Notes under the pieces: model-generated
Seen by the model: only the letters and a program-made list of their open reading frames with translations
The model's database searches: none
What the model was told of the DNA's origin: nothing
Program-made: the position numbers and the translations under genes
Source: Alistipes sp.
Lineage (GTDB): Bacteria > Bacteroidota > Bacteroidia > Bacteroidales > Rikenellaceae
Length of the DNA: 64,000 nt
NCBI GenBank assembly: GCA_045656505.1
Contig: JAZORI010000058.1
Location: 38,173 to 102,172, forward strand
Reading direction: 5' to 3'
In this document: positions 23,913 through 63,118 of the stretch, one piece after another
How positions within the stretch are numbered: position 1 is the first letter of the stretch
How the letters are laid out: the number at the start of each line of letters is the position of its first letter

Positions 23913-23929
23913 TCTTACACGTAGCATCC

Positions 23930-37224: not shown

Positions 37225-37231
37225 ATTTGCA

Positions 37232-37356
37232 TTTGTCGTGAAAAGGCAGCATTAGCTGCACATCCCTAAAAGCCCGACAATGGCTGTACGTTTTAGTACT
37301 ATCCATCGTCGGGCTTTTTACGCGATGCGCACCTACTACTACCTTTTGACGACAAA
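37232..37356 (+). repeat. Family B long palindromic repeat, copy 1
   Basis: Terminal IR TTTGTCGT/ACGACAAA; inner stem AAAAGCCCGAC.ATGG/CCAT.GTCGGGCTTTT; apical GTAC-GTTTTA-GTAC. Confidence 0.85.
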
Positions 37357-37360
37357 TGGG

Positions 37361-37484
37361 TTTTATCGTGATAGTGGCGCATTTGCACCATATCCTTCAA
37401 ATTCCCGAATGGGACGTACGTTAAGTACTACCCATCCGAGAATTTTTCACGATATAGCGCAACTACACCACTTTGACGATAAAA
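37361..37484 (+). repeat. Family B long palindromic repeat, copy 2
   Basis: Terminal IR TTTTATCGT/ACGATAAAA; apical GTAC-GTTAA-GTAC; tandem with copy 1. Confidence 0.85.
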
Positions 37485-37543
37485 CAGTGCAGGGATTTAT
37501 CAGTGTACAAACCCGGGAAAACCTTTTGCGTAGCAATAAATAT

Positions 37544-37580
37544 ACATCCGCGCAGCGGATACCTCTATAAGGCTAATACC
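37544..37580 (+). repeat. Module C mini-hairpin repeat
   Basis: ACATCCGCGCAGCGGATACCTCTATAAGGCTAATACC; 34/37 identical to 51651-51687. Confidence 0.85.
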
Positions 37581-37837
37581 ATGCGAGGAGGAAGGGTCGG
37601 CGCAGCCGAGCCAATAGCCAACGGCTAATCGCTAGCAGTGAAGCTCTGCTCCGCCGAGCTGACGGCAAATATCTGTCGCATAAGGGTTAATTTTCAAATT
37701 TTCTTAAAAAAAACGGGCGAAAGTTTTACCTTTTGCAAAAATAAGTGTATATTTGTGGCCGATTTCGCTCTGATTGAGAGCGAGATAGGTTTTTAAGATA
37801 AGGTTTAAGTATAATTAATAAACAAAAATTTACAGCT

Positions 37838-38110
37838 ATGACAAAGGCAGATATCGTAACAGAGATTGCGAAGAAGACTGGTGTTGAGAAGGTTCAGATT
37901 CAGGCAATCGTTGAGTCTTTCATGGAGGAGATTAAGGACTCTTTGGGCCGTGGTGAGAATGTTTATCTCCGTGGTTTCGGTTCTTTCATCGTTAAGACTC
38001 GCGCAGAGAAGGTTGCTCGCAATATCTCTAAGAATACAACTATCACTATCCCTGAGCACAAGATTCCTGCATTCAAGCCAGCGAAGACTTTCACTGCTAA
38101 GGTAAAGTAA
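37838..38110 (+). CDS. hup: DNA-binding protein HU
   Basis: MTKADIV...VYLRGFGSF...ARNISKN...IPAFKP; promoter TATATTTG at 37748-37755. Confidence 0.95.
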   Translation: MTKADIVTEIAKKTGVEKVQIQAIVESFMEEIKDSLGRGENVYLRGFGSFIVKTRAEKVARNISKNTTITIPEHKIPAFKPAKTFTAKVK

Positions 38111-38146
38111 TTTGACACTATTGTTTAATCTTTAATATTTACAACT

Positions 38147-38236
38147 ATGCCAAACGGAAAGAAGCATAAGCGTCACAAGATGGCGACCCACAAGCGTAAG
38201 AAGCGTCTGCGTAAGGATCGTCACAAGAAGAAGTAG
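38147..38236 (+). CDS. 29-aa basic protein, bS22-type small ribosomal protein (not in the ORF track)
   Basis: MPNGKKHKRHKMATHKRKKRLRKDRHKKK*; AT-rich leader; resembles the Bacteroidota bS22 sequence as recalled. Confidence 0.8.
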   Translation: MPNGKKHKRHKMATHKRKKRLRKDRHKKK

Positions 38237-38425
38237 TATGCCCGGCGGCATATTGCTTAGATAGGAGTATAGCGCTAAAGGGTCCTCCCTTTAGCGTTCC
38301 TATTATTGAGGAATGGGTAAATGGCTGATTTTTTTCGTTACAATCTGTTCGAAATATCGGATTCAATCTATCACTCCTCGCTATACAAAGCCTCGAAAGA
38401 GGTCTAAAAACGATAATCTTGTACT

Positions 38426-40117
38426 ATGAACCGTGAGTTAATTATCAATGTAACATCTACCGAGATAAATATTGCCCTTTGTGAGGATAAGGTGTTGGTA
38501 GAGTTGGGTAAGGATATGGCACAGACAGGCTTTTCTGTAGGTGACATATACCTCGGCAAGGTGCGCAAGATTATGCCCGGACTCAACGCCGCGTTTGTAA
38601 ATATTGGACATGAACGCGACGCTTTTATCCACTATCAGGACTTAGGACCACACTTCCCCGCACTCGACAAGGTTGTCGATAGTTGGGCTCCAGGGAAGAA
38701 GGCGCTTCGTGTAGAGGCGATGAAGATTGATACCCCTCTGGAGAAGGATGGTAAGATTTCAGACCATCTGCAAGTAGGTCAGACCGTTATGGTTCAAATC
38801 TCTAAGGAGGCTATCTCTACAAAGGGACCACGTCTGACTTGCGATATCTCGTTGGCGGGAAGAAATATTGTCCTTGTTCCATTCTCCTCAAAGGTCTTCC
38901 TTTCGCAGAAGATTCGCTCCAACGAGGAGAAGAAGCGCCTCAAGCGTGTTGCTGCAGGCGTACTTCCAAAGAATTTTGGTGTAATCATTCGCACCGCAGC
39001 CACAAATGCCACCGATCTTGATGTTGAGCAGGATATCCTTGCTGCTGTAGAGAAGTGGAATAAGACTTGTCAGCAGATTCGCCGCAATCAGGTGCCGGCA
39101 CTGCTTATGGGTGAGATGAGCCGCGCCAATACAATTATTCGTGACTCCCTCGATGGCACATTTACGCAGATTTGTGTCGATGATGAGGGTATGTACAACG
39201 AAATCAGAAACTATATTCAGTCGGTAGATCCCGAGAAGGTCAAGTTGGTGAAACTTTACCGTGGATCGGTACCGATTTTTGACAACTTCGATATCTCGCG
39301 ACAGATAAAGTCGCTCTTTGCTCGATATGTATCTCTGAAGAGAGGTGCCTACCTTATTATAGAGTCAACGGAGGCGATGAACGTCATTGACGTTAACTCC
39401 GGAAACCGCACCAAGGCGGATGACAACCAGGAGGAACATGTCCTTGAGGTCAACCTTGCGGCTGCGGCGGAGATTGCTCGTCAGCTCCGACTCAGAGATT
39501 TGGGTGGTATTGTGATTATCGACTTTATAGATATGCACAAGACGCAGAGCCGCCAGTTGCTCTACGATGAGATGCAGCGCTTAATGGCAACCGACAAGGC
39601 TCGCCACACAATCCTGCCGCTGACCAAGTTTGGTCTGATGCAGATTACGCGCCAGCGCATCCGTCCGGTAGCTATTAAGGATATCCGAGAGCTCTGCCCA
39701 ACATGCGGTGGCTCGGGAAAGGTCGAGCCTACAGTGCTTCTTGAGCGTACTATTGAGAATCAGTTGTCACTCCTGGCAGAGGAGCATGGTGAGCGTTATG
39801 TAAACCTTGTAGTCAGCCCATATATTGCAGCCTTCCTTAAGCAGGGACTTATCTCTCTGCGTACCCGTTGGGCGCTGCGCTATGGTATGTTTATCTCGGT
39901 TACAGCCTCACAAAGTGCAGGTATCATAGAGGTCAAGTATCTCGATCGCAAGGGTGAGGATATGTTGCATCCGAACTATATAGGCAACCGCAAACCTAAA
40001 AAGAGGGTTGATATTAAGGTTGAAAAGCTCGTTCCAAAGGATAAGGAGCGTAAGGGACAGAGCGGTAGAGGTAAGCGTCGAGTAAAGAAGATAAGTGATA
40101 CAAAGGATAAAGAGTAG
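38426..40117 (+). CDS. rng: Ribonuclease E/G family (RNase G)
   Basis: S1 domain (VGDIYLGKV...LNAAFV), IDVNSG, LRDLGGIVIIDFIDM, CPTCGGSG. Confidence 0.92.
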   Translation: MNRELIINVTSTEINIALCEDKVLVELGKDMAQTGFSVGDIYLGKVRKIMPGLNAAFVNIGHERDAFIHYQDLGPHFPALDKVVDSWAPGKKALRVEAMKIDTPLEKDGKISDHLQVGQTVMVQISKEAISTKGPRLTCDISLAGRNIVLVPFSSKVFLSQKIRSNEEKKRLKRVAAGVLPKNFGVIIRTAATNATDLDVEQDILAAVEKWNKTCQQIRRNQVPALLMGEMSRANTIIRDSLDGTFTQICVDDEGMYNEIRNYIQSVDPEKVKLVKLYRGSVPIFDNFDISRQIKSLFARYVSLKRGAYLIIESTEAMNVIDVNSGNRTKADDNQEEHVLEVNLAAAAEIARQLRLRDLGGIVIIDFIDMHKTQSRQLLYDEMQRLMATDKARHTILPLTKFGLMQITRQRIRPVAIKDIRELCPTCGGSGKVEPTVLLERTIENQLSLLAEEHGERYVNLVVSPYIAAFLKQGLISLRTRWALRYGMFISVTASQSAGIIEVKYLDRKGEDMLHPNYIGNRKPKKRVDIKVEKLVPKDKERKGQSGRGKRRVKKISDTKDKE

Positions 40118-40133
40118 GGTATAACCTGTAAAG

Positions 40134-43100
40134 ATGCACAAAATAGTCCAGACAGCGACACAGACTGTTCCGTTTGTGCAGCTGCAAAAAGAGTTGAAAC
40201 AGAAGGGCAACACCGTCTATCTCAATGAGTTAGTCGGAGGGGCCCTTACGTTTTATTTGGCAGCATCAGTGACAAAAAATGCTGGTCTGCATATACTTGT
40301 GGCGGAGGATCGTGATGCGGCAGCATATGCGATGAATGACCTCTATGCACTGCTTGACGAGAAGAGAGTATTGTTCTTCCCGTCTGCCTATAAACGCTCT
40401 GTACTCTACGGCCGAGAGGATGCGGAGAGTATAGTTATGCGTACAAATACGATGAATGCCATCAAGAGCCTTGCGGCGGATGACTATCTTGTTGTCTGCA
40501 CATATCCCGATGCTATAGCCGAGAAGATTGTGGCAAGTGAGGAGCTTGAACAGCGCAAGATTAGAATCTGCTGTGGTGATAGGGTAGATATTGGCGACTT
40601 GGTTGATGAACTTGAGTCTCAGGGCTTTGTGCGTGTAGATTTTGTCTATGAGCCAGGTCAGTACTCTGTCCGAGGAGGTATCGTAGATATATTTTCATAC
40701 TCTGAGAGCCGCCCATATCGCCTCGACTTTTTTGATGACGAGGTAGAGTCGCTGCGCCGTTTTGAGATTGCTAATCAACTCTCGTCCGATAAGTTGGAGA
40801 GCGTGGATATTATCGGAAATATCAACCGTGCAGAGAGCCGTAATAGCTCGTTTGCCGCGTTTGTTGGTCAGAGTGCCGCCTATTGGTTTTATGATGCTGA
40901 TTACATCCTGCGTAAGGTTGATGATATCCGCATAAAGGCGATGGAGAGTAGCGAGGAGCCTCAGTTGGTAGCTCAGCGAATGACCTCGCGTAAGGAGCTG
41001 ATGACAGACTTGGAGCAGAGTACATTGCTGCTTCTTAAGAATAACCTTACCGAACGCCCTGCGCGTACAACGGTCATCTTCCATACCCAACCACAGGCGA
41101 AATTTGGCAAAAATTACGAACGCCTCGCCGACGATATTGCATATCGTAAGGGTGAGGGGTTGAGCTGTTATATCCTCTCGGATAATCATGCGCAGATGGA
41201 GCGATTGGAGAATATTTTTCACTCTATATCGCGCCCGGATGTGAGCCTTGAGATGATGCGTCTGTTGCTGCACGAGGGTTTTGTCGATTACGATACGAAA
41301 CTCTGTCTATATACTGAGCATCAGCTATTTGACCGCTATCGACGCTATAAAATCAATGGTGAGATTAAGCGCGATGAGCAGATGACCGTGGCAGAGCTTA
41401 ACGCCCTGCGAGTTGGTGACTATGTCGTGCATATTGACCACGGAGTTGGTCGATTTGATGGCCTTGTGACCCTGCCAGACCCTATGGGTGGAAAGCCACG
41501 AGAGGTTATTAAGCTTGTTTATCGTGATGGCGATGTGCTCTTTATCAATGTTCACTCTCTGCACTGCATCTCTCGCTATAAGAGTGGTGATGGCGAGCGC
41601 CCGAAGGTGCATAAACTTGGCAGTGGCGCTTGGCAAAAACTTAAGACGGCAACAAAGAGGGCTGTCAAGGATATCTCGCGTGAGCTTATTGCCCTCTATG
41701 CAAAACGTAAGGCAAGTGAGGGTTTTGCCTTCTCGCCCGATAGTTATCTACAGCAGGCTATGGAGGCCTCTTTCCGATATGAGGAGACCCCTGATCAGCA
41801 GCGAGCAATTGAGGCAGTAAAGAGTGATATGGAGTCATCGCGCCCGATGGATAGACTCATCTGCGGAGATGTTGGTTTTGGAAAGACCGAGGTGGCTATC
41901 CGTGCAGCGTTCAAGGCGGCTGTTGATGGAAAACAGGTGGCGGTGCTTGTGCCGACAACTATTCTTGCTCTGCAGCACTACCGCTCATTTATGGAGCGAC
42001 TCAGAGATATGCCGATACGTGTGGAGTATCTCAATCGCTCAAAGAGCGCAAAGCAGACACGCCAAATTGCCGAAGATTTGGAGGCGGGAAAGATTGATAT
42101 CCTTATCGGAACGCATAAGATACTCGGTAGCGGGATAAAGTTTAGGGATTTGGGTCTGCTCATTATTGACGAAGAGCAGCGTTTTGGCGTTGCAGCAAAG
42201 GAGAAGCTGACCCATATGAGTGTCAATGTCGATACGCTGACCCTTACGGCAACACCTATTCCGCGAACATTGCAGTTCTCGCTGATGGGCTCGCGCGATT
42301 TGTCGGTTATCTCTACACCTCCACCAAATAGACAACCGATTATCACAGAGTCACATACATTCTCCGAGGAGCTGGTTAAGGATGCCATTGAGGCGGAGCT
42401 GTCGCGTGGTGGTCAGGTCTATTTTATACATAACAACGTGGAGCAACTTGAGGATATCCGTGGAATGGTCAGCCGTCTCTGCCCTAAGGCGCGTGTTGTT
42501 GCAGCACATGGTCGCATGAAGGCGAGTGATATGGAGCGACTGATTATGGATTTCATCTATGGCGAGAGTGATGTGCTTGTGGCAACGACTATCATCGAGA
42601 GCGGAGTGGATATCCCGAATGTGAATACCATCATCATCAATAATGCTGACCACTTTGGTCTGAGCAACCTGCATCAGCTGCGTGGTCGTGTGGGTCGAAG
42701 TGACCGTAAGGCGTATTGCTACCTCTTAAGTAGGCCAAATGAGCTGCTGTCGGACGATGCACGCCGTAGATTGAGGGCGATTGAGGAGTTCTCCGATTTG
42801 GGTTCGGGATTCAATATCGCTATGCAGGATCTGGATATCCGTGGCGCGGGTAATCTGTTGGGTGCCGAGCAGAGTGGATTTATTGCCGATATCGGTTTTG
42901 AGACCTACCAGAAGATTCTCAATGAGGCTATTGCTGAGTTGCGTGCCGAGGGCCTTGATGTGGCGGGATTGTCGGCAGAGGAGCAGAAGGTTGTCAGCAG
43001 AATGAGCTATGTGGATGATGTAACGGTGGAGCTTGGCGTAGAAGCCTCACTGCCAGCAGATTATGTACAGCAGCCTGCTGAGCGATTAAGACTCTATCGC

Positions 43101-43463
43101 GAGCTGGATTCGATTGTTGAAGAGTCGCTGTTGCAGCAGTTTGAGACAAGGCTTGTTGACCGCTTTGGCCGTATTCCTGACGCGGCACGACAACTGCTTG
43201 ATGTTGTGCGACTTAGATGGGTGGCAGCCGAGCTTGGAATCGAGCGTGTGAAGATTAAAAATGGACTTATGATTGTCGCTTTTGTGGGTGATGACCGCTC
43301 GCCATTCTATAAGACCGAGCAGTTTATGACCCTCCTTCGCCGCGTCACCTCGCAACCCGAGCGTTTTGTCCTCAAGCAGCGCGATACAAAACTTGCGATG
43401 ACTGTGCGAAATGTTGCTTCGGTTGCTGATGGCGTGAGAGTATTGACCGAATTGAAATCATAA
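40134..43463 (+). CDS. mfd: Transcription-repair coupling factor
   Basis: VGDYVVHIDHGVG, GDVGFGKT, DEEQRFG, TATPIPRT, QLRGRVGR. Confidence 0.97.
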   Translation: MHKIVQTATQTVPFVQLQKELKQKGNTVYLNELVGGALTFYLAASVTKNAGLHILVAEDRDAAAYAMNDLYALLDEKRVLFFPSAYKRSVLYGREDAESIVMRTNTMNAIKSLAADDYLVVCTYPDAIAEKIVASEELEQRKIRICCGDRVDIGDLVDELESQGFVRVDFVYEPGQYSVRGGIVDIFSYSESRPYRLDFFDDEVESLRRFEIANQLSSDKLESVDIIGNINRAESRNSSFAAFVGQSAAYWFYDADYILRKVDDIRIKAMESSEEPQLVAQRMTSRKELMTDLEQSTLLLLKNNLTERPARTTVIFHTQPQAKFGKNYERLADDIAYRKGEGLSCYILSDNHAQMERLENIFHSISRPDVSLEMMRLLLHEGFVDYDTKLCLYTEHQLFDRYRRYKINGEIKRDEQMTVAELNALRVGDYVVHIDHGVGRFDGLVTLPDPMGGKPREVIKLVYRDGDVLFINVHSLHCISRYKSGDGERPKVHKLGSGAWQKLKTATKRAVKDISRELIALYAKRKASEGFAFSPDSYLQQAMEASFRYEETPDQQRAIEAVKSDMESSRPMDRLICGDVGFGKTEVAIRAAFKAAVDGKQVAVLVPTTILALQHYRSFMERLRDMPIRVEYLNRSKSAKQTRQIAEDLEAGKIDILIGTHKILGSGIKFRDLGLLIIDEEQRFGVAAKEKLTHMSVNVDTLTLTATPIPRTLQFSLMGSRDLSVISTPPPNRQPIITESHTFSEELVKDAIEAELSRGGQVYFIHNNVEQLEDIRGMVSRLCPKARVVAAHGRMKASDMERLIMDFIYGESDVLVATTIIESGVDIPNVNTIIINNADHFGLSNLHQLRGRVGRSDRKAYCYLLSRPNELLSDDARRRLRAIEEFSDLGSGFNIAMQDLDIRGAGNLLGAEQSGFIADIGFETYQKILNEAIAELRAEGLDVAGLSAEEQKVVSRMSYVDDVTVELGVEASLPADYVQQPAERLRLYRELDSIVEESLLQQFETRLVDRFGRIPDAARQLLDVVRLRWVAAELGIERVKIKNGLMIVAFVGDDRSPFYKTEQFMTLLRRVTSQPERFVLKQRDTKLAMTVRNVASVADGVRVLTELKS

Positions 43464-43484
43464 ATACAAACATGAAAATCAAAC

Positions 43485-43512
43485 AGCTAATAGCTAAAAG
43501 CCAATAGCCAAC
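43485..43512 (+). repeat. Heptamer tandem run AGCYAAN x4
   Basis: AGCTAAT AGCTAAA AGCCAAT AGCCAAC; related runs at 32512-32546, 37609-37636 and 51678-51705. Confidence 0.8.
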
Positions 43513-43593
43513 GCTGCGATTAAGCCGAGAGCAGAGTCAAGCTTGCTTGAACTATGCCGAGGCGGAGCAGGGACGGGTTGCCAAAGGCAAGCC

Positions 43594-43674
43594 AACGGCA
43601 ATATAGCACAAATATACAGCGAGAGATAATGCAAACTTGTAATTTAATCATAGATACGGGCAATACTTTTCATA
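43594..43674 (+). repeat. 81-bp exact direct repeat, copy 1
   Basis: Identical to 43745-43825; contains the coaX leader and first 15 codons. Confidence 0.95.
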
Positions 43675-43688
43675 TAATCGGAGCGTAG
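43629..43688 (+). pseudogene. Truncated duplicate of the coaX 5' end (19-aa ORF)
   Basis: MQTCNLIIDTGNTFHIIGA*; first 15 aa identical to CoaX, then runs into module D and stops. Confidence 0.8.
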
Positions 43689-43734
43689 CGACTAAGCCTC
43701 CCTTTGCCAAAGGGAGGTTTGGAGGGAATGTAAA
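43678..43734 (+). repeat. Module D palindromic repeat
   Basis: TCGGAGCGTAGCGACTAAGCCTCCCTTTGCCAAAGGGAGG...ATGTAAA; homologous to 62941-62997. Confidence 0.85.
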
Positions 43735-43744
43735 GATGCAATTT

Positions 43745-43825
43745 AACGGCAATATAGCACAAATATACAGCGAGAGATAATGCAAACTTGTAATTTAATC
43801 ATAGATACGGGCAATACTTTTCATA
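43745..43825 (+). repeat. 81-bp exact direct repeat, copy 2
   Basis: Identical to 43594-43674 (offset 151); overlaps the true coaX start. Confidence 0.95.
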
Positions 43826-44535
43826 AAATTGCCGTTATAGGTATGAACAACAACATTCTGGAGGAGAGGGTAGTGCCTGAACTTACGGAGGAGGTTGTTT
43901 GTCAGATATGTAGTGCTTACGCTCCGTCGAAGGCCATTATATCATCTACTCGTGGCGATGCTCAGAGGAGTAGAGGTCTGTTAGAGGGTAAGGTGCAATA
44001 TGTTCTTTGTTTGGATAGTAAGACGCCACTGCCCATTGCGCTTGACTATAATCGAGCGACAATTGGAACAGATCGTATAGCGGCAGCAGTAGGTGCGGTA
44101 GAGATGTATGGCGCTGATAAGAGTATCCTTGTGGTGGATGCAGGTACGGCGATAACGCTCGATTTTATTGACTGCGGAGTATTTCGCGGAGGCAATATCT
44201 CTCCGGGTGTGGATATGCGACTTGAGGCGCTTAATGAGAAGACGGCGACCCTTCCGCTCTGCTCACCAAAGGCTCTTGATGCAGTTGCGCCACAGCTCGG
44301 TCATTCGACCGATGAGGCGATAGTTTTTGGCGTGATGGAGGGTGTTTTTTACGAAGTAAAAGGGTATATTGACGCTTTTGTCGAAAAAAATGCAGATTTA
44401 TTGACAATTTTTATCGGAGGAGACGCAGAATATTTTGAGAATCGAATTAAAAATGCGATATTTGCGGGTCGTAAAGTCGTCTTTTGCGGCCTTAATAGAA
44501 TTTTAGAATACAATGCAGAGAATGAAGATATATAG
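43780..44535 (+). CDS. coaX: Type III pantothenate kinase
   Basis: IIDTGNT, IGTDRIAA, VVDAGTAIT, GGNISPG, GGDA. Confidence 0.92.
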   Translation: MQTCNLIIDTGNTFHKIAVIGMNNNILEERVVPELTEEVVCQICSAYAPSKAIISSTRGDAQRSRGLLEGKVQYVLCLDSKTPLPIALDYNRATIGTDRIAAAVGAVEMYGADKSILVVDAGTAITLDFIDCGVFRGGNISPGVDMRLEALNEKTATLPLCSPKALDAVAPQLGHSTDEAIVFGVMEGVFYEVKGYIDAFVEKNADLLTIFIGGDAEYFENRIKNAIFAGRKVVFCGLNRILEYNAENEDI

Positions 44536-45913: not shown

Positions 45914-45949
45914 TGACTAACAACATAAACAAAATAACAAACAATCACA

Positions 45950-47299: not shown

Positions 47300-47316
47300 T
47301 CTGATATAAAGATTCA

Positions 47317-48093: not shown

Positions 48094-48108
48094 TAATATA
48101 TATAGGTA

Positions 48109-49377: not shown

Positions 49378-49455
49378 TGTAAAAAGGCGAATAATTGGAA
49401 TAAAATTACTATATTCGCGAGTTATTTGAAAATTTTACAAAAAAAATATTCTGAT

Positions 49456-51480: not shown

Positions 51481-51607
51481 TTTTGACGTGATAGTGGGGC
51501 ATCTACCTCCGCTAACACATATAAACAACAAAGGGCAGTACGCACAAGTACAGCCCTTTGTTGTTTTATGTGCCGAGCGGAGTATCTGCCCCACTCTGAC
51601 GCCAAAA
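51481..51607 (+). repeat. Family B long palindromic repeat, copy 3
   Basis: Starts at the base after the ppiD stop; TTTTGACGT...ACGCCAAAA; apical GTAC-GCACAA-GTAC. Confidence 0.85.
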
Positions 51608-51650
51608 TGGTACATAGATGTATCGAAGTATAGATGGTTAAAATAATCCA

Positions 51651-51705
51651 ACATCCGCGTAGCGGATACCTCAATAAGGCTAATAGCAAATAGCCAACAG
51701 CCAAT
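51651..51705 (+). repeat. Module C plus heptamer run
   Basis: ATCCGC-GTA-GCGGAT, then GGCTAAT AGCAAAT AGCCAAC AGCCAAT. Confidence 0.85.
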
Positions 51706-51708
51706 ATC

Positions 51709-51742
51709 AAAAAAATAGCGAGAATATTCTCGCTATTTTTTT
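51709..51742. terminator. Bidirectional terminator (tkt/ppiD)
   Basis: Perfect palindrome AAAAAAATAGCGAGAAT|ATTCTCGCTATTTTTTT. Confidence 0.8.
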
Positions 51743-51762
51743 GTTTGTATTGACTAAGAGCT

Positions 51763-53793: not shown

Positions 53794-53897
53794 AATTATA
53801 TAGTTTTTAGTACGTTTTTCACTTTCCAAACACAAATATACAAAAATTTCGGTAAATACGATGCTATATTCTAATTTTTTTGAGATGTTGTAATACA

Positions 53898-53940
53898 ACA
53901 CACCCTCTCTACCTGCAGAAAACAAGCGGAGAGGGTGTGT
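53898..53940 (-). terminator. Probable terminator after clpX
   Basis: ACACACCCTCT...AGAGGGTGTGT; long loop and weak U-tract. Confidence 0.5.
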
Positions 53941-53996
53941 GTTAGTGTGTTTGAAAGAGACAATAACTTGTGCTAAGTAGTCTCTTTATGGCAGTT

Positions 53997-55274: not shown

Positions 55275-55276
55275 AA

Positions 55277-55927
55277 CTATCTCTTTGTTACAACATTGTC
55301 AATCAGACCATAAGCCTTTGCCTCCTCGGCAGAGAGCCAGTAGTCGCGGTCTGCATCGTGCTCGATGGTTGCGTAATCCTTGCCGGTGTGGTAAGATAGG
55401 ATGTCGTACAACTCCTTCTTGAGGCGAAGAATCTCGCGTGCAGTAATCTCGATATCAGATGCCTGACCCTGAACGCCACCAAGTGGCTGGTGAATCATCA
55501 CTCGTGAGTGTGGCAGTGCACTTCGCTTGCCTGCAGCACCTGCGGTGAGCAGTACTGCACCCATAGAGGCAGCCATACCGGTACATGTTGTCGAAACATC
55601 GCACTGCGAGAGCTGCATGGTGTCGTAGATGCCAAGACCTGCCGAAACAGAGCCGCCAGGCGAGTTTACATATATCTGAATATCCTTCGTAGGGTCTGTT
55701 GACTCAAGGAAGAGAATCTGTGCCTGAATAATATTTGCGATATCGTCATTGATAGGTGTGCCCAGGAAGAGGATGCGCTCCATCATCAGACGGCTAAATA
55801 CATCCATCTGAGTCACATTGAGCTGACGCTCCTCAAGAATTGTCGGGTTGATATATGAACGATAGTCGTGTAGGGTGGTTGAGGTGATGCCGCAGCCCTT
55901 TACTGCGAATTTTTCAAACTCTTTCAT
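55277..55927 (-). CDS. clpP: ATP-dependent Clp protease proteolytic subunit
   Basis: [22 protein letters not shown]; start moved to ATG 55927 (MKEFEKF) because the longer ORF reads through a repeat. Confidence 0.95.
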
Positions 55928-55954
55928 GTCGTTTTCCTGTTGGTGGGGACACTG

Positions 55955-56060
55955 TAAAAAGCGAATTTCTGCGTTATACTCATTCTCGAAATCCTCATTT
56001 ACGCTCTTCAGTAAACTGCGGTTTCTCGAATTTCGCAAGCCTTGAACTTCAACTTTTTAT
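55955..56060 (+). repeat. Family A long palindromic repeat, copy 3 (tig-clpP spacer)
   Basis: Shares ATTTCTGCGTTA, AAATCCTCA, CTGCGGTTTCTCG and TTCGCAAGCCTTGAA with 23930-24042; apical TTTAC-GCTCTTCA-GTAAA. Confidence 0.85.
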
Positions 56061-56150
56061 CCGTTTCCATCTGTGTTGAAAAGAATCTAAGGACGAAAAA
56101 GACCCTGCAAGGAGATTCCTCGCAGAGCCTTATAATAGAGTGTACTACAA

Positions 56151-57476
56151 TTACAGGTTGCGAGCGATCTCTGCGAACTCGTCAGCAGATACAGCCTTCT
56201 CGGTAACCTTAACCTTAGCACGGATAGATGCGATAACCTTCTGCTCGTAGAGCTTTTCGTAGATGTGGTTCTTCTGCTCCTTGTTCTCGAGAATGTTCTT
56301 AGCAAAGTTAGCAACCATCTCCTCTGGTGCGTTAGGCATGCCGTACTGAGCGAACTGCATAGCTGCAAGATCCTTAGCCTCAGCTGTAGCCTCCTCCTCA
56401 GTTACGTTAATCTGCTCTGCAGTGATAATCTGGCGCTGGATGTAGTTCCAAGAGAACATCTTGATAAAGCCATCGAAATCCTTCTCGATATCCTCCATAG
56501 TGAACTTACCCTCGTTGATAGTGTAGAGCCAACGCTTGAGGAACTCGGTAGGCATAGCGAGTGCAGCCTTCTCGAGCATGAAGTTGCGAACAGTTGCAGC
56601 AAACATATAGTCGCACTCGCGAACCATCTCACCCTCGATCTGAGCGTCGATGTAAGCGTCAAGACCCTCCTTGTCGGTAACGTTACCCTCTGGGAATGCA
56701 GTCTTGAAGAACTCCTCGTTGATCTCAGGGTTTGCGAACTGACGAATCATAGTGATCTCAAGCTCGAACTCTGGGTTGATAGAAGCAAGCTCCTCCTCCT
56801 TTACGTGGAGCATAGCAGCGCGCTGTGCAGCTGAAGAGTACATCTCGTTGATGTTGATAGTGGTCTTGTAACCAACCTTCTTACCAATCCAAGGCTTGCG
56901 CTCCTCGTCAGACATAGAGATAAGACCAACGTAAGCATCCTCAACACGGAGCTCACCGTTGTCGAGAGTTACAGTCAGTGCCTCATCCTTCTTAACCTTG
57001 TCAACCTCTACGAGCTTACCGAAACGACGGAGGAAGTTGTCGAGGAAGTTCTTGTGCATATCCTTGCTGATCTTAATCTTGTGGTAAGTCAGCTTGTCCT
57101 TAGAAGTGAGCTCAACCTCGTACTTTGGAGCCTCACCAATCTCGAACATAAACTCGAACTCGGTAGAGTTGTCAAAGTCGAAAGCACCCTGCTCCTCTGC
57201 TGGGATAACATCACCGATATAGTCGATGTTCTCCTTCTGCAGGTACTCAAAAACTGCATTTGAAGCTGTGCGGTAAGACTGCTCAGCAACAACGCCCTTG
57301 CCATACATCTTGCGTACAATGCCCATAGGAACCATACCTGGACGGAAACCAGGGATGTTAGCCTTGCGCTTGTAGTCGTGCAGCATCTTCTCTACTGCCT
57401 CCTTGTAGTCAGCCTCGCCAACTACAACCTTGAGCAGTGATACGCCCTGCTCCTTCTGTACTCTTGTAATCTCCAT
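56151..57476 (-). CDS. tig: Trigger factor
   Basis: IPGFRPGMVP ribosome-binding motif; 441 aa; upstream of clpP-clpX. Confidence 0.93.
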   Translation of the reverse strand: MEITRVQKEQGVSLLKVVVGEADYKEAVEKMLHDYKRKANIPGFRPGMVPMGIVRKMYGKGVVAEQSYRTASNAVFEYLQKENIDYIGDVIPAEEQGAFDFDNSTEFEFMFEIGEAPKYEVELTSKDKLTYHKIKISKDMHKNFLDNFLRRFGKLVEVDKVKKDEALTVTLDNGELRVEDAYVGLISMSDEERKPWIGKKVGYKTTININEMYSSAAQRAAMLHVKEEELASINPEFELEITMIRQFANPEINEEFFKTAFPEGNVTDKEGLDAYIDAQIEGEMVRECDYMFAATVRNFMLEKAALAMPTEFLKRWLYTINEGKFTMEDIEKDFDGFIKMFSWNYIQRQIITAEQINVTEEEATAEAKDLAAMQFAQYGMPNAPEEMVANFAKNILENKEQKNHIYEKLYEQKVIASIRAKVKVTEKAVSADEFAEIARNL

Positions 57477-57587
57477 AGTTGTATATTTTTAATTTGTCTA
57501 AATTCTCGTGCCAAAGTAGCGCGCAAAGATACAAATTTTTTTCGGAAATTACATAACTTCGCCTAATATTTCGTACCTTTGCACTAT

Positions 57588-58373
57588 ATGAAGGCGATAT
57601 TTTATACTCTTGCAGCCTGTGTGATGGTTGTTTCGTGTGGCGGTGCGCGCTCTAAGTCAAAATCTCAGAGCACAGTTGTCGCCCCGCAAATGGTAGATAT
57701 AGAGGTGGTTAATAGTTTTAGCCATCAGACAGATGCCTACACACAGGGTCTGCAGTTTGTAGATGGTGTGATGTGGGAGGGTACGGGTGAGTATGGCCGC
57801 TCACGCCTGCAATATACAGATATGGCTACCGGAAAGACAACTGTCGTATCTACACTGCCAAAGGAGCACTTCGGTGAGGGTATAACCCTGCTTGGGGATA
57901 AGATATATCAGCTTACGTGGCAGAATGGCGTGATGCACATCTACGACAGACAGAGCCTCCGTAAGCTTGACCAGAAGCACTACAAGGGCGAGGGCTGGGG
58001 CCTTACAACAGATGGGCAGTGGCTCTATATGTCTGACGGTACGCCAGATATTCGTGTGCTCGACCCACAGACTCTTGAGGTGAAACGCCGCATAGGTGTG
58101 GTGTGCAATGGCTCGTCACTTCCGTACCTTAATGAATTGGAGTGGATTGATGGTAAGATTTGGGCAAATGTCTATACGCTTGACCAGATTGTGGTAATCA
58201 ATCCCGACAACGGAGTGGTTGAGAAGATTGTGAACTTAGAGGGAATATTGCCAGAGAGTGAGAGAACCGTAACAACAGATGTGCTGAACGGAATAGCATA
58301 CGACAGCGAGCACAGACGTATATTTGTTACGGGTAAGAATTGGAGTAAATTATTTGAAATCAGATTATTATGA
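57588..58373 (+). CDS. Glutaminyl-peptide cyclotransferase (beta-propeller type), lipoprotein
   Basis: YTQGL, FGEGI, EGWGL, LNELE, VLNGIA; start moved to ATG 57588, downstream of TACCTTTG at 57574-57581. Confidence 0.88.
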   Translation: MKAIFYTLAACVMVVSCGGARSKSKSQSTVVAPQMVDIEVVNSFSHQTDAYTQGLQFVDGVMWEGTGEYGRSRLQYTDMATGKTTVVSTLPKEHFGEGITLLGDKIYQLTWQNGVMHIYDRQSLRKLDQKHYKGEGWGLTTDGQWLYMSDGTPDIRVLDPQTLEVKRRIGVVCNGSSLPYLNELEWIDGKIWANVYTLDQIVVINPDNGVVEKIVNLEGILPESERTVTTDVLNGIAYDSEHRRIFVTGKNWSKLFEIRLL

Positions 58374-59464
58374 ATCCAATAGAGTTTCGTAGAGAGATTC
58401 ATCGCCACCCAGAGCTCTCGTTTGCAGAGTATCGCACGGCAGAGTTTATTGAGGCAGCACTTGCCGCTGAAGGTATCGCTTGCCGCCGTGTTGCAGAGAC
58501 GGGTGTGTTGGCTGTAATTGAGGGTAGGGGAGATATTACACGTGCAGTGGTTCTTCGTGCCGATATAGATGCTCTTCCGATAGAGGAGGCGACGGGCTTG
58601 GAGTACGCCTCCGTAAATAGAGGTGTGATGCACGCTTGTGGTCACGATATGCACGCAGCTATACTCTTTGGTGCGCTGCAGCGACTAAATAGGGAGCGAA
58701 ATTTTGAGGGTACTATCTTTGGGCTCTTTCAGCCGGGTGAGGAGTGTACTCCGGGTGGTGCGTCAAAGGTCTTGGCGGAGCGTCCATTTGATGGTTACAA
58801 GGTGGTGGCTGTCATCGGTAATCATACAGATAGCGGGCTTGAAGTTGGGCAGATAGGCCTTTGCGAGGGGCCGTTTATGGCGTCAAATGACGAGTTGCGT
58901 TTCTATGTTCGTGGTCGAGGTGGCCATGGGGCAATGCGTGATAAGATAGATGATACTGTGGCTGCTGCTGCCAATATAGTTACAAGGGTTAACTGCCTAA
59001 ATGATAGCGATTTGGTGCTCTCTATCGGTAAGATTCAGGCTGATGGAGCGACAAATATCATCCCAGATATTGTCTATATGGAGGGTACGATGCGTACCTT
59101 TGACCAGAAGCTCCGCGAGAGTATATGGGAGGAGGTTGAGGCTGTTGCTGCAGATGTAGATTCGCACTTCGGTACTACGACAGAGGTGGTTGTGGGTCAT
59201 GGTTATCCGTGCGTGGTAAACGATGGTCTGCTGACAGACCTTGTGCGTGGCATTGCAGCCGAGAAGTACGAGGCAGTGGAGCTTACAAGACGCTATACAG
59301 CGGAGGATTTTGGATTCTATACAACGGAGTATCCGTCAATATTCTACCGCTTGGGTGTCGGTACGGCAGCGGGTCGTAGCCACACATCGACCTTTGCCCC
59401 TGATGAGAGGGCTATAGAGGTTGGTGTAGATGTGATGGCTACAGTAGCTGTAAAGGTTAAATAG
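58370..59464 (+). CDS. M20D amidohydrolase
   Basis: HRHPELS, LRADIDALP, HACGHD, FQPGEE, AEDF. Confidence 0.9.
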   Translation: MNPIEFRREIHRHPELSFAEYRTAEFIEAALAAEGIACRRVAETGVLAVIEGRGDITRAVVLRADIDALPIEEATGLEYASVNRGVMHACGHDMHAAILFGALQRLNRERNFEGTIFGLFQPGEECTPGGASKVLAERPFDGYKVVAVIGNHTDSGLEVGQIGLCEGPFMASNDELRFYVRGRGGHGAMRDKIDDTVAAAANIVTRVNCLNDSDLVLSIGKIQADGATNIIPDIVYMEGTMRTFDQKLRESIWEEVEAVAADVDSHFGTTTEVVVGHGYPCVVNDGLLTDLVRGIAAEKYEAVELTRRYTAEDFGFYTTEYPSIFYRLGVGTAAGRSHTSTFAPDERAIEVGVDVMATVAVKVK

Positions 59465-59467
59465 GTT

Positions 59468-61666
59468 ATGGCAAAGAAGAAAAAAAATAGACGCGAGTCA
59501 TTTAGTGACCGCGCAAGTTTTATAGTCGGCATGTTCCGTGAGCAGCCGGAGCGCAAGTTTACGCTTAAGGGGCTTGCTGCAGCATCGGGCGGAGCAGATA
59601 AGGTCGGCAGAGATATGACCAAGAGCATCCTCGATACGCTGCTTGAGCAGGGTTATATCGAGAGCGAGGGACGTGGTAACTACCACCTGTCAAGGAGTAA
59701 ATTGCCTCGATATCAGGGTGTTGCAGATATGAGTAACAATGGCAATCTCTATGTCTCTACAGACGAGTTGCCATCAGATGTGTTTATACACTCGCGAAAC
59801 TCAAAGCACGCACTCAATGGCGATAAGGTTGAGTTTGTCGTAACACATACGGCTCGCACAGGTGCTCTTGAGGGTGAGATTACGAAGATTATTGAGCGTA
59901 GCGACCGCTGTTATGCAGGTGTTGCGGAGGTGGTGTCGAAGAGCGCAATTGTAGTTGCGCCTGACTCGCGACGCTTGCCAGTAGATATATATCTGTCGCG
60001 CAAAAAGTATCCGAAGGTCAAGACGGGCGACAAGGTCGCTGTGCGTATTGCGCAGTGGTATGACGGAGATCAGATGCCGATAGGCGAGTTGGTGGATATA
60101 TTGGGTACTACGGGCGATAATGATGCCGAGATGCACGCCATACTGCTTGAGTATGACCTTCCGTATAAGTTTGAGGAGCATATTGAGCAGGCTGCGGCCG
60201 AGATAGATGGTACAATTACGGCTAAGGATTATGCCGAGCGCAGAGATATGCGTGATGTGCCGACCCTTACTATCGACCCTGCAGATGCAAAGGACTTTGA
60301 TGATGCCCTCTCTGTAAGACCGTTGGGCAATGGTCAGTGGGAGGTCGGTGTACATATTGCCGATGTGACTCACTATGTTCGTCCTGGTAGTGTTATTGAT
60401 GACGAGGCGTTGGAGCGCGGAACATCTGTCTATTTGGTCGATAGAACAATCCCGATGTTGCCCGAGAGGCTCTCAAATGAGCTCTGTTCGCTGCGCCCGA
60501 ATGAGGAGAAACTCTGCTTCTCTGCAATATTTGTTATAGACGAGAAGCTCAAGATTGTAAGCGAGTGGTTTGGTCGTACCGTAATATACTCAAATCGCAG
60601 ATTTACATACGAGGAGGCTCAGCAGATTATAGAGAGTGGCGAGGGAGAGATGAAAGATGAGATTCTGACCCTTCACCGCTTGGCTCAGGGGCTGCGTAAG
60701 GAGCGATATCGTAAGGGTGCTATTGCCTTTAATCGCCGCGAGGCTAAGTTCCATCTTGACGAGCAGGGTAAGCCTACGGGGGTATATTTCAAGGTTCAGA
60801 AGGAGGCTAATCAGCTCATTGAGGAGTTTATGTTGCTTGCAAATCGCCGTGTGGCTACATTCTGCGCAAAGCGTAACGGCAAGCCACGCACAATGGTCTT
60901 CCGAGTGCATGATGAGCCAAATAGCGAGAAGTTCGAGCGTTTCCGTACCTTCATCCTCCGTTTTGGTCATCTCTTTAAGGCTCAGAAGGGTCTTGCAGTG
61001 GCAAAAGAGCTCAATCAGCTTATGTCTGATATCAAAGGCAAGGTCGAGGAGAATGTTGTCGGTCTGTTGGCTATCCGCTCAATGTCAAAGGCGGTATATA
61101 CAACTGCCAATATCGGCCACTACGGACTTGCTTTCCCATATTACACCCACTTCACCTCGCCAATTCGTCGCTATCCCGATATGATGGTGCACCGTCTGTT
61201 GCAGCGCTATTTGGATGGCGGTAAGAGTGCAGACCAGGATGCCCTTGAGGCACTTTGTGAGCACTCGTCTGAGCGAGAGGTGGTAGCTGCCGAGGCAGAA
61301 CGCGCATCTATTAAGTATAAGATGGTCGAGTTTATGGCAGACAAGGTCGGTCAGGAGTTTGATGGCCATATCTCAGGTATGTCCGAGTGGGGTATATTTG
61401 TGGAGCTGGAGAACTCAATTGTTGAGGGTATGGTGGCTATGCGAGATATCGTTGGCGACTACTACCGCTTCGATGAGGCACGCTACGAGGTCTATGGACA
61501 CTCTACAGGTAACGTCTTTACGCTTGGTGATAAGGTGCGAGTAAGGGTAAAGAGCGCCGATTTGCGCCGCCGAATGCTCGACTTTACATTCACTGAGGTG
61601 GATGGTGAGCTCATCGAGGAGCCGACAATAACATTTAATGATAAGGTAAAGAGGGGCAGAAGATAA
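59468..61666 (+). CDS. rnr: Ribonuclease R
   Basis: TIDPADAKDFDDALS, IEEFML, HFTSPIRRYPD; C-terminal S1 domain. Confidence 0.95.
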   Translation: MAKKKKNRRESFSDRASFIVGMFREQPERKFTLKGLAAASGGADKVGRDMTKSILDTLLEQGYIESEGRGNYHLSRSKLPRYQGVADMSNNGNLYVSTDELPSDVFIHSRNSKHALNGDKVEFVVTHTARTGALEGEITKIIERSDRCYAGVAEVVSKSAIVVAPDSRRLPVDIYLSRKKYPKVKTGDKVAVRIAQWYDGDQMPIGELVDILGTTGDNDAEMHAILLEYDLPYKFEEHIEQAAAEIDGTITAKDYAERRDMRDVPTLTIDPADAKDFDDALSVRPLGNGQWEVGVHIADVTHYVRPGSVIDDEALERGTSVYLVDRTIPMLPERLSNELCSLRPNEEKLCFSAIFVIDEKLKIVSEWFGRTVIYSNRRFTYEEAQQIIESGEGEMKDEILTLHRLAQGLRKERYRKGAIAFNRREAKFHLDEQGKPTGVYFKVQKEANQLIEEFMLLANRRVATFCAKRNGKPRTMVFRVHDEPNSEKFERFRTFILRFGHLFKAQKGLAVAKELNQLMSDIKGKVEENVVGLLAIRSMSKAVYTTANIGHYGLAFPYYTHFTSPIRRYPDMMVHRLLQRYLDGGKSADQDALEALCEHSSEREVVAAEAERASIKYKMVEFMADKVGQEFDGHISGMSEWGIFVELENSIVEGMVAMRDIVGDYYRFDEARYEVYGHSTGNVFTLGDKVRVRVKSADLRRRMLDFTFTEVDGELIEEPTITFNDKVKRGRR

Positions 61667-61667
61667 C

Positions 61668-62765
61668 ATGCTGACACTGAAAGATATATACCGCAAGTCA
61701 CACGATGGCCAGATGCTCACCCTTGATGAGGCGTGGTTGCTCTATAGCACCGCCCCTCTCGAGGAACTTGCAGCTCAGGCCGATCTGCTGCGACAGAAGA
61801 TGGTGCCGGATCCGAGCGTTGTGACTTGGCAGATAGACCGCAATGTCAATACTACAAATGTCTGCACATCGGGCTGCCTGTTCTGTAACTTCCATTGCAA
61901 GCCGCACCAGACAGACAAGCACTTTATAACATCAATAGACGAGTACTGCCAAAAGATAGACGCAATGGTTGCCCTGGGTGGCAATCAGCTACTTCTGCAG
62001 GGTGGAATGCACCCAAAACTCGGAATTGAGTTCTACGAGGAGCTGTTCCGTGAGCTGAAACGTCGCTATCCTACACTGCGCCTCAATGCTTTGGGAGCAC
62101 CTGAGGTTGCACATATTGCTAAGATTAGCGGAATCTCAACGCAGACAACCTTAGAACGCCTTGTGGCTGCGGGCCTTAACTCTCTGCCGGGGGCTGGTGC
62201 AGAGATTTTGGTGCCGAGGGTGCGCAAAATTATCTCGCCCGCAAAGCCGAGCGTGGAGCAGTGGCTTGAAGTTATGCATCAGGCTCATATGATGAATATC
62301 CCAACCACAGCAACCATGATGTATGGCCATGTTGAGACCCCGCAAGAGCGCGTTGAACACCTTATCCGCCTTCGTGACCTGCAGGCCGATGTGCCCGCAG
62401 GAAATTATGGATTTATCGCCTTCATCCCATGGATATTCTGCTCGCACGGCACTCAACTCGAAAAGAGAGGTGTCATTTCGCACTTTTCACCCCTTGAGTA
62501 TATCCGTATTATCGCCACCGCACGACTTGTGCTCAATAATATCCGTAACATCCAAGCCTCATGGCTCACCGTCGGTAAGCAGACCGCTCAACTCGCCCTC
62601 CATAGTGGCGCCAACGACTTCGGCTCCATCATGATTGAGGAGAATGTCGTAAGCTCCGCCGGCGCCTCAAACCGATTCGATAAAGAGGGTATTCAGCAGG
62701 CAATCCGCGAGGCGGGGTTTATTCCACGTCTCCGCGACCAACTCTATAATATTTTATCGTTATAG
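61668..62765 (+). CDS. mqnC: Cyclic dehypoxanthine futalosine synthase (futalosine menaquinone pathway), radical SAM
   Basis: RNVNTTNVCTSGCLFC, LLQGG, SLPGAGAEIL, GANDFGS, EENVV. Confidence 0.8.
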   Translation: MLTLKDIYRKSHDGQMLTLDEAWLLYSTAPLEELAAQADLLRQKMVPDPSVVTWQIDRNVNTTNVCTSGCLFCNFHCKPHQTDKHFITSIDEYCQKIDAMVALGGNQLLLQGGMHPKLGIEFYEELFRELKRRYPTLRLNALGAPEVAHIAKISGISTQTTLERLVAAGLNSLPGAGAEILVPRVRKIISPAKPSVEQWLEVMHQAHMMNIPTTATMMYGHVETPQERVEHLIRLRDLQADVPAGNYGFIAFIPWIFCSHGTQLEKRGVISHFSPLEYIRIIATARLVLNNIRNIQASWLTVGKQTAQLALHSGANDFGSIMIEENVVSSAGASNRFDKEGIQQAIREAGFIPRLRDQLYNILSL

Positions 62766-62877
62766 TGGCGCATTTGCGGCACATCCCTTAAAAACCAACG
62801 GCGGCTGTACGTTTTGAGTACTATCCGCCGTTGCTTTTTTGCACGATGCACCATCTCTAACACGTTTTGACAACAAA
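62752..62877 (+). repeat. Family B long palindromic repeat, copy 4 (overlaps mqnC stop)
   Basis: TTTTATCGTTATAGTGGCGCATTTGC matches copy 2; apical GTAC-GTTTTGA-GTAC; ends TTTGACAACAAA. Confidence 0.85.
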
Positions 62878-62940
62878 TTGGTGCAAGATATAGGGTAGTG
62901 CTGTACTGCGTAGCCGTGAAACCAGTGCAATTGGTGCACC

Positions 62941-62997
62941 TCGGAGCGAAGCGACTAAGCCCCCTTTTTTCAAAAGGGGGGGTGGGGGATATGTAAA
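62941..62997 (+). repeat. Module D palindromic repeat, second copy
   Basis: TCGGAGCGAAGCGACTAAGCCCCCTTTTTTCAAAAGGGGGG...ATGTAAA. Confidence 0.85.
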
Positions 62998-63065
62998 TAT
63001 AATTGTAAAGTATTAGCATCGGTAGAGTTTTCGGATTTAGGTTTGCCATCGGAGATGGCACAATA

Positions 63066-63118
63066 AAAATAGTCCTCTAAGGTCAAGCTCGCTTGAAACC
63101 GAAAGGGGACTATTTTTT
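63066..63118. terminator. Bidirectional terminator with embedded module E
   Basis: AAAAATAGTCCTCT...AGGGGACTATTTTTT; loop contains GTCAAGCTCGCTTGAA (compare 43536-43551). Confidence 0.7.

Follow-up and report, generated by a model that had tools for sequence, protein, structure and literature searches.

Stop-codon-anchored palindromic mosaics share replication polarity in small-genome Alistipes

The window analysed here, a 64,000-nucleotide stretch of an Alistipes genome (C58:38173-102172), carries intergenic mosaics of palindromic repeats, which an initial annotation had described as four spacers built from common parts in a similar order. All four spacers read as described, and the parts proved to be true repeat families dispersed throughout the genome. 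The largest of these, family B, is an imperfect-palindrome hairpin that begins at the stop codon of the preceding gene and is oriented with the replication fork. Patches of these elements were exchanged between strains, and no known mobilising enzyme was detected in the genomes that are rich in them. We put the chances at about even that the elements are lineage-specific mosaics, similar to bacterial interspersed mosaic elements (BIMEs) and REPINs, which evolve by short-patch templated copying tied to replication in a clade of Alistipes with small genomes.

The genome containing the window (G000) is a 2.08-Mb metagenome-assembled genome (MAG) of 71 contigs and 47% G+C. Orthologues of the PpiD-like protein assign it to Alistipes (Rikenellaceae) and identify MAGs from animal guts as its closest relatives. 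The element-rich genomes are G000, G003, G008, G010, G012, G013 and G014, all of them fragmented MAGs. As a second species we used G014, a MAG from roe-deer caecum, of which 1.33 Mb in six long contigs was analysed. Family B copies were counted in G000 by profile search, and other genomes were scanned with a covariance model. Strain alleles were taken from metagenome contigs (L numbers) that encode identical proteins and whose flanks are 97-100% identical. Unless another genome is named, counts below refer to G000.

Family B is a hairpin of about 128 nt, present in at least 167 non-overlapping copies. These form 125 arrays (86 single, 36 double and 3 triple), many of which lie at contig ends. 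The consensus opens with (TAA/TAG)-TTT(T)RTYGTGAWA, followed by variable stems, CACATCC, an inner stem and the apex GTAC-G..A-GTAC. It then returns through the inner stem, CGATGC and the variable stems to end in TYTGACRAYAAA. The stems covary, with compensatory double changes in 16 of 29 consensus pairs. The foot reads YGTGA on the top strand and YGTCA on the bottom strand, with the G or C forming a fixed G.G (C.C) mismatch in the stem. Behind the hairpin comes a tail with a conserved RGTGCA..GA and a mini-hairpin of the GCGTAGC type. Family A, a 113-nt hairpin with the apex CACATAC-G..A-GTATG, has 54 copies. The smaller parts are module M2 (ATCCGC-GNA-GCGGATACC; 19 copies), module M3 (TCGGC-GNA-GCCGAGCC; 25 copies), module D (5-6 copies) and runs of GCYAAYR heptamers (54).

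The 'grammar' suggested by the four spacers of the window holds over 224 clusters, in which the order is hairpin, M2, AGCCAAT-type heptamers and M3. B preceded M2 in 13:0 cases, M2 preceded the heptamers in 13:1 and B preceded the heptamers in 19:0. Mosaicism inside the one genome was weak (11 discordant versus 34 concordant pairs of arm and inner part), and the clearer evidence of exchange comes from the strain comparisons described below. Heptamer runs of the AGCCAAT/GCTAATA type also stand alone in 44 spacers, often directly before intrinsic terminators, and around some hairpins they occur in both orientations; examples are found at window positions 24053-24160, 29376-29412, 32508-32559 and 43482-43512, and at empty sites of G014. 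A third hairpin family, (A)TTTTAAGCGG...CTGCCGCTAAC...apex GTAC...GCCGAGCG...CCGCTTAAAAT, occupies the same position after stop codons and can replace or precede family B (L177:3240-3370, in minus orientation of the locus; C20 near 25120-25245; C14 near 21165-21290).

As the marker of replication polarity we took the G-C skew of third codon positions, calculated as a mean over + and - genes. Plain GC skew was dropped as a marker; it is confounded by a coding-strand component of about 0.06, which is why the averaged third-position skew was used. In the latter, replication contributes 0.1-0.2 and coding about 0. The position of rpoBC, the S12/EF-G/L2 operon, dnaK and ftsZ on the G-rich strand confirmed that this is the leading strand. 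Gene counts rest on crude open reading frame (ORF) calls, and by this skew genes divide about 50:50 between leading and lagging strand.

Orientation of family B was nearly uniform within each contig. Overall, 108/125 arrays were co-oriented with the fork (p 2e-17), and 94% were where the skew was strong. Family B was found after 80 of 778 leading-strand genes (10.3%) and after 12 of the 791 on the lagging strand (1.5%; p 1e-14). In convergent spacers, 39 of 47 arrays adjoined the leading-strand gene; among tandem spacers, 27 copies were found in 483 spacers of leading genes versus 6 in 488 spacers of lagging genes. The other parts followed the same rule, with concordance to the skew in 44/54 copies of family A, 15/17 of M2, 19/22 of M3, 36/49 of the heptamers and 5/5 of module D. 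The second species gave the same result. In G014, 109/118 B copies matched the skew, one orientation was shared by 40/41 copies of a 402-kb contig and by 28/28 of a contig of 294 kb, and B followed 13.7% of leading versus 1.9% of lagging genes (p 3e-12). Where orthologues lie on different replicative strands in the two species, the element was present only where the gene is leading (11:0 and 6:1). The uniform + polarity first noticed in the window is thus linked to replication, clearly so in two species and despite the even division of genes between the strands, and is not a local accident.

The initial annotation had also placed GNA-triloop mini-hairpins (N being any base) on the + strand only. 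All eight that it listed are present, with a single coordinate displaced by one base (GC-GTA-GC lies at 43683-43689, not 43682), and each of the seven family A and B apical loops of the window does read G...A on the + strand, including that of the 55955-56062 copy in the tig-clpP spacer. Genome-wide, the polarity survives as a bias: intergenic GNA triloops closed by at least four pairs number 143 on the leading strand, and the remaining 79 lie on the lagging strand. By type, the leading:lagging ratios were 48:19 for GCA and 46:20 for GTA.

Replication and transcription can be separated in spacers between lagging-strand genes, where the two conflict. There, features followed replication in 15 cases and transcription in 6, and family A together with the small modules kept replication polarity by 11 to 4 even when antisense to both neighbours. 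The proposed test of replication against gene strand gave a clear replication signal. Family B is also sense to the gene whose stop it adjoins, so that replication and transcription polarity act together on it and its orientation tracks both; the pattern that the initial annotation named as refuting its reading, orientation by the strand of the upstream gene, thus holds in part for this family, and that reading is only partly supported. One 33-kb contig (C25) shows a change of orientation: B copies are + before 11.5 kb and - after 14.7 kb, the skew changes sign near 8-12 kb, and family A copies at 18-28 kb are + again. The skew is too noisy there to call a terminus, and the pattern may reflect a terminus, an inversion mosaic or a misassembly.

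Family B is anchored at stop codons. Its spacers are mainly ++, -- and convergent, only 4 being divergent, and its 5' end follows the stop of the co-oriented gene upstream at a median distance of 2 nt. Among 90 arrays with a long upstream ORF, the T-run immediately follows the stop in 56%, and the element itself supplies the stop, as the TGA within GTGA, in 17%; in the rest the stop is mostly 2-22 nt away. A stop trinucleotide (TAA, TAG or TGA) immediately precedes the element, or a stacked copy, in 73% of arrays, and copies internal to arrays lack such a motif. Remnants of the 5' end, 10 nt long (TTTGYYGTGA), are often stacked ahead of a full copy. Positions in the spacer between stop and T-run were complementary, as an extension of the palindrome would be, in 24/74 cases. 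Being sense to the gene whose stop it adjoins, family B lies in the 3' untranslated region (UTR) of that gene. The true intrinsic terminator is distal to the modules; that at 51708-51743, for example, places all modules of its site in the ppiD 3' UTR. We found no target-site duplications at family B ends and no empty allele with identical flanks.

Comparison of species revealed a high turnover. Between G000 and G014, 25 sites were shared, 32 were specific to G000 and 43 to G014. The native stop at these sites was either retained or replaced (TAA by TAG or TGA). Several genes have the element in place of their last 1-4 codons, with the stop provided by it, and in a few cases the insertion is 2-4 codons before the native stop, just after an out-of-frame TAA. 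The ppiD site is occupied by differing subfamilies in 14 species whose proteins are 77-88% identical. More distant Alistipes have a plain terminator after ppiD, behind the same ...YF-stop, and empty sites in both comparisons carry ordinary terminators.

Strain comparisons showed that parts of elements are replaced. At the mqnC-like gene, strains differ only in the 35-nt 3' outer arm, which matches the 5' arm in L155 and belongs to another subfamily in the window and L156. The ppiD alleles diverge from the first base after TAA: L174 and L175 have a different subfamily and tail up to the M2 mini-hairpin, and L177 has the third hairpin family and a chimera fused at the apex. The ppiD replacement unit has a fixed right border beside a GNA mini-hairpin. 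In the 37.2-kb spacer, inner hairpins were swapped with the outer arms kept, second copies were replaced or internally deleted, and M2 and heptamer content varied. Family A at 23803..24050 is present in 1, 1.5 or 2 copies among strains. The 151-nt module D unit is absent from L170, L171 and L173, single in the window and L169, and double in L172. Its 92-nt duplicated stretch is the coaX leader and promoter region, and the unit looks like a long duplication from slippage or template switching, not a short target-site duplication. Strain break points fell in short conserved blocks. We considered assembly chimeras as a source of these alleles and regard them as unlikely, because alleles recur in independent samples (L174 = L175, L179 = L180, and the window is close to L156) and because the shared blocks, of 8-15 nt, are shorter than assembler k-mers. 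Some strains with identical CoaX have a divergent mfd end and a family-A-like hairpin (L169:860-1060, L170:1011-1060) in place of the final mfd codons and the entire heptamer/M4 spacer (window 43440-43590), the alleles breaking inside mfd.

The initial annotation proposed that the elements fold as single-stranded DNA on one replicative strand, with + strand polarity. By predicted stability, however, the + strand, the sense strand of the elements, is not the better folder. In 115/117 B copies of G000 the complementary strand was the more stable (-64.5 vs -50.2 kcal/mol with RNA parameters, DNA parameters giving the same direction), as it was in 98/98 B copies of G014 and in 23-25 of 25 family A copies. 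Over the 117 copies of G000, the complementary strand has 608 G.T pairs against 69 on the sense strand, and only the loops (G...A closure, GNA) favour the latter. Mutation bias does not explain this asymmetry, since the sense strand has more C than G (24.6% C, 19.3% G), the reverse of its host strand. As leading-strand sequence, the elements' sense strand is also lagging-strand template. The better-folding strand is leading-strand template and is neither present in mRNA nor exposed as lagging-strand template.

No enzyme that could account for mobility was recognised. A cognate HUH nuclease had been proposed as a partner of the folded elements, and PF01797 (Y1 HUH, RAYT) gave 0 matches in all the element-rich genomes listed above, with matches in 11 of 12 other Bacteroidales genomes and in control genomes. 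Reverse transcriptase was not found in G000, G008, G010, G012 or G013. In the element-rich genomes the best score for the integron integrase (IntI, TIGR02249) was about 85 bits against a cut-off of 265, with only Xer-like recombinases detected; TnpB (PF07282) had no match over cut-off, and IS110 none. These genomes are small (1.7-2.4 Mb) and encode only about two Xer-like tyrosine recombinases, with no Y1, TnpB or IS110 and, in most, no reverse transcriptase. Larger Alistipes genomes (3.3-3.8 Mb) encode those enzymes but hold few or no elements. By covariance model, the family is restricted to part of the genus: 60 to more than 150 copies in the 1.7-2.4-Mb MAGs, and 0 or 9 weak copies in the closed 3.3- and 3.8-Mb relatives (G004, G011). 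Other Bacteroidales gave no family B matches except a marginal one (E 1.3e-4) in a single genome. A genus-wide scan made with an overly strict E-value returned few matches.

Short-patch copying tied to replication would combine these results as follows. About one in ten leading-strand genes carries a 113-130-nt imperfect-palindrome hairpin that starts at its stop codon or provides it, followed by the tail, M2, AGCCAAT-type heptamers, M3 or D and, last, the gene's real intrinsic terminator. With no recognisable transposase to move the elements, blocks would be exchanged among dispersed copies by copy choice or gene conversion that starts and stops in the conserved blocks, and arrays would lengthen and shorten by slippage. 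Copying may be linked to the discontinuous synthesis of DNA at the fork, copies in the wrong orientation may be lost there, or both. The putative entry point is a stop-codon-like motif (TAA/TAG/TGA plus a T-run) on the lagging-strand template. Such entry would explain why only the stops of leading-strand genes acquire or keep elements, and this one polarity rule would account both for B being sense to its gene and for that gene being on the leading strand. The elements would be passive passengers of 3' UTRs, with a possible further role there as RNA hairpins.

Several points weigh against this explanation. The coupling of copying to the fork, or to a particular strand, is something we infer, and the exchange mechanism is unproven because the conserved blocks measure only 8-13 nt. 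Nearest-copy identity among family B copies is about 0.90 at the median, so there was no recent burst, and discordant copies show no more decay than concordant ones, which gives no visible sign of continuing purging. The flip of orientation at origin and terminus was not seen on one closed chromosome, because all element-rich genomes are fragmented MAGs. That the better pairing is kept on the non-exposed strand is left unexplained by replication-tied copying. Finally, an enzyme may act that escaped recognition or that comes from a phage or plasmid missing from the MAGs. A more specific version, which we hold to be possible but doubtful, is spreading without a transposase by template switching of the nascent lagging strand at the fork, with entry at stop-codon-plus-T-run microhomologies of the lagging-strand template, or else by an undiscovered recombinase of single-stranded DNA (ssDNA) hairpins. 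Under template switching, the nascent lagging strand would have the strongly folding 'bottom' strand sequence, leading-strand genes alone would gain modules, and the variable length of the donor's downstream modules would generate the 'grammar'.

Each of three other explanations fails at least one prediction that we tested. The elements could be non-autonomous ssDNA transposons, derived from IS200/IS605 and similar to REPINs or palindrome-associated transposable elements (PATEs), that insert 3' of TAA/TAG/TGA into the lagging-strand template and are excised precisely by an unrecognised or trans-supplied enzyme. The sense strand does lie on the lagging-strand template, as in IS608 and ISDra2 (PMC5027513), and family B ends lack target-site duplications. 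The exact start of the ppiD replacement after TAA and its fixed right border beside a GNA mini-hairpin would also suit such a transposon, as would new copies stacked just 3' of the TGA in the 10-nt remnants, the few insertions after an out-of-frame TAA 2-4 codons before the native stop, and the fixed G.G (C.C) foot mismatch, which recalls sites read by structure. However, other Bacteroidales encode Y1-HUH, TnpB, IS110, reverse transcriptase and IntI, none of which was found in the element-rich genomes. What differs between strains is in many cases a patch within an element (a single arm, or the inner hairpin) and not the whole, no TRR trinucleotide precedes the second copies in arrays, and the better-folding strand is on the leading-strand template, an arrangement opposite to the IS608 rule (PMC5027513). 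We therefore regard this explanation as unlikely.

A role primarily in RNA, as mRNA-stabilising hairpins of 3' UTRs, hairpins coupled to ribosome release, or terminators, would make replication polarity secondary to which genes need the elements. It draws on the facts that B is sense to the adjoining gene, begins at its stop and lies upstream of the true terminator, and so is co-transcribed; that the stems covary; and that the ppiD site is occupied in 14 species. REPs (repetitive extragenic palindromic sequences) no more than 15 nt from stop codons are reported to affect translation in E. coli. Yet a sense element is 7-10 times rarer after lagging genes, at equal numbers of leading and lagging genes, and family A and the small modules hold replication polarity when antisense to both neighbours. 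Moreover, the transcribed strand folds worse, having A.C mismatches in place of the G.T pairs of the other strand, strains carry one subfamily or another at the same site (ppiD), and there is no Rfam match. A primary RNA role thus appears improbable. Host polar signals, read directionally by a translocase, recombinase or nucleoid protein and kept co-oriented by selection in the manner of Chi or KOPS (FtsK-orienting polar sequences), would fit a co-orientation of about 90% at one array per ~17 kb, values that KOPS resemble, as well as the common polarity of all module families and the conserved sequence blocks and apical GTAC. We consider them highly improbable, since known polar signals are 8-mers that need neither 128-nt hairpins nor anchoring at stop codons, and these elements are missing from close relatives with larger genomes, show a high turnover and have interchangeable subfamilies.

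Among described repeats, the closest parallels are the REP/BIME and REPIN-RAYT systems of E. coli and Pseudomonas. These too are abundant intergenic palindromic units combined with other motifs in regular order, they lie at gene 3' ends in tandem and convergent spacers and rarely in divergent ones, they vary between strains, and they form long hairpins from inverted halves, each with a small palindrome. The Alistipes repeats resemble them in abundance and mosaic structure, with 167 + 54 copies, 3' intergenic positions and a fixed module order. They differ in having no RAYT gene and no REP of 20-40 nt tagged with GT[AG]G (the foot contains neither GTAG nor GTGG), the unit being instead a 113-130-nt hairpin anchored at the stop codon. 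To our knowledge, a shared polarity of about 90% relative to replication has not been reported for REP/BIME. IS200/IS605 elements and PATEs share strand specificity with one strand on the lagging-strand template, a lack of duplications, perhaps insertion next to a short motif, and hairpins near the ends (PMC5027513, PMC6006769). An orientation bias with a defined strand on the lagging-strand template is present here as well (108/125 arrays in G000, 109/118 copies in G014). Unlike that family, however, the element-rich genomes lack TnpA and TnpB, there is one long hairpin instead of separate hairpins at the left and right ends, the opposite strand is the stronger folder, and exchange proceeds by sub-element patches.

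Integron attC sites, in particular the 120-130-nt Vibrio cholerae repeats (VCRs) of sedentary chromosomal integrons, resemble family B as ~128-nt imperfect palindromes with conserved ends and a variable centre, placed directly after ORFs and sense to them, with a conserved unpaired stem position. Their bottom strand is likewise the better structured and is found on the template of the leading strand, in 25 of 30 sedentary chromosomal integrons (PMC5371416). In contrast to integrons, there is no integrase over the cut-off, no attI and no contiguous cassette array, and the flanking genes are housekeeping genes. The attC motifs R'' (RYYYAAC) and R' (GTTRRRY) are absent, the ends of family B being TTTGTYGTGA and TYTGACRAYAAA. 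Rickettsia palindromic elements, Neisseria Correia elements and CGTC REPs are also palindromic repeats of 100-150 nt that proliferated in small genomes without a known dedicated transposase, and some members overlap coding ends, as here. For these families we know of no replication polarity or anchoring at stop codons. Family B differs from Correia elements in lacking a TA duplication, and from the CGTC-tagged REPs, which also have no transposase (PMC3733652), in that the latter have 8-9-bp stems and a CCA tail. Searches of Rfam and of phage and plasmid collections found no sequence similarity; in the window no Rfam family reached its gathering score, and the sole sub-threshold match was a spurious miRNA (E 0.1).

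The copies and modules of the window are collected in Table 1. Two ORFs of 96 and 105 codons lie wholly inside the mosaics (37280-37570 and 62744-63061) and are almost certainly spurious. Downstream of the first mosaic, upstream of an HU-like gene, positions 37700-37760 contain TATATTTG and similar TAnnTTTG boxes. TAnnTTTG is the -7 promoter consensus of Bacteroidota, and some family B 5' ends (TAATTTTG) also fit this box, by chance or design.

Table 1. Repeat elements, modules and terminators in the window (positions within the 64,000-nucleotide stretch)
Feature	Position	Strand	Remarks
Two tandem family A hairpins (23803, 23933)	23803..24050	+	after stop of + gene 23080-23796
Family B copy 1, GTGAAAA type	37230..37358	+	starts 5 nt after TAA stop (37222-37224) of upstream + gene
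Family B copy 2, GTGATAG type	37360..37485	+	head-to-tail with copy 1
Tail after B	37486..37545	+	conserved RGTGCA motif; mini-hairpin TTGC-GTA-GCAA at 37526-37536
Module M2	37546..37578	+	ATCCGC-GCA-GCGGAT, then ACCTCTATAAGGCTAATA
Module M3	37580..37625	+	TCGGC-GCA-GCCGA, then GCCAATA/GCCAACG heptamers
Heptamer run and module M4	43482..43590	+	GCCGAGGCGGAGC...GCCAACGG; after mfd stop codon
151-nt unit	43587..43829	+	module D 43679-43737 (GC-GTA-GC 43683-43689) between coaX-leader copies
92-nt direct duplication of coaX leader	43587-43678 and 43738-43829	+	flanks module D
Family B hairpin	51481..51607	+	begins at first base after ppiD stop (TAA 51478-51480)
Tail, M2, heptamers	51608..51707	+	M2 ATCCGC-GTA-GCGGAT at 51653-51667
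Bidirectional intrinsic terminator	51708..51743	.	A-run, 16-pair stem, T-run; common to convergent ppiD and transketolase genes
Family A hairpin	55955..56062	+	between minus-strand tig and clpP; antisense to both, co-oriented with replication
Family B hairpin	62750..62880	+	provides stop of mqnC-like gene (TAG 62763-62765); 3' outer arm of other subfamily than 5' arm
Tail and module D copy	62881..63000	+	GC-GTA-GC 62908-62914; module D with GC-GAA-GC 62946-62952; C5T6...A4G7 hairpin
Mini-hairpin TGCCATC-GGA-GATGGCA (63044-63060), then terminator-like hairpin	63044..63118	+	AGTCC...GGGGACT and T-run at 63066-63118

Repeats of the REP/BIME type are common, and debate continues over their spread and over what determines where they sit; no mode of spread is known for families that lack a RAYT, among them the CGTC REPs and the palindromic elements of Rickettsia. 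In practical terms, the elements break assemblies, as many contig ends fall in them. They also provide the stop codons and last residues of some proteins, and seed spurious ORFs in annotation. This lineage offers a clean natural case, with streamlined genomes, no recognisable transposase and a replication polarity of about 90% despite almost no gene strand bias. Anchoring at stop codons with single-nucleotide precision, together with visible exchange between strains, makes it testable whether enzymes, replication errors or selection on strand-specific folding shape such repeats. If spreading by template switching or by an ssDNA-hairpin recombinase were true, it would be a new mode of DNA mobility.

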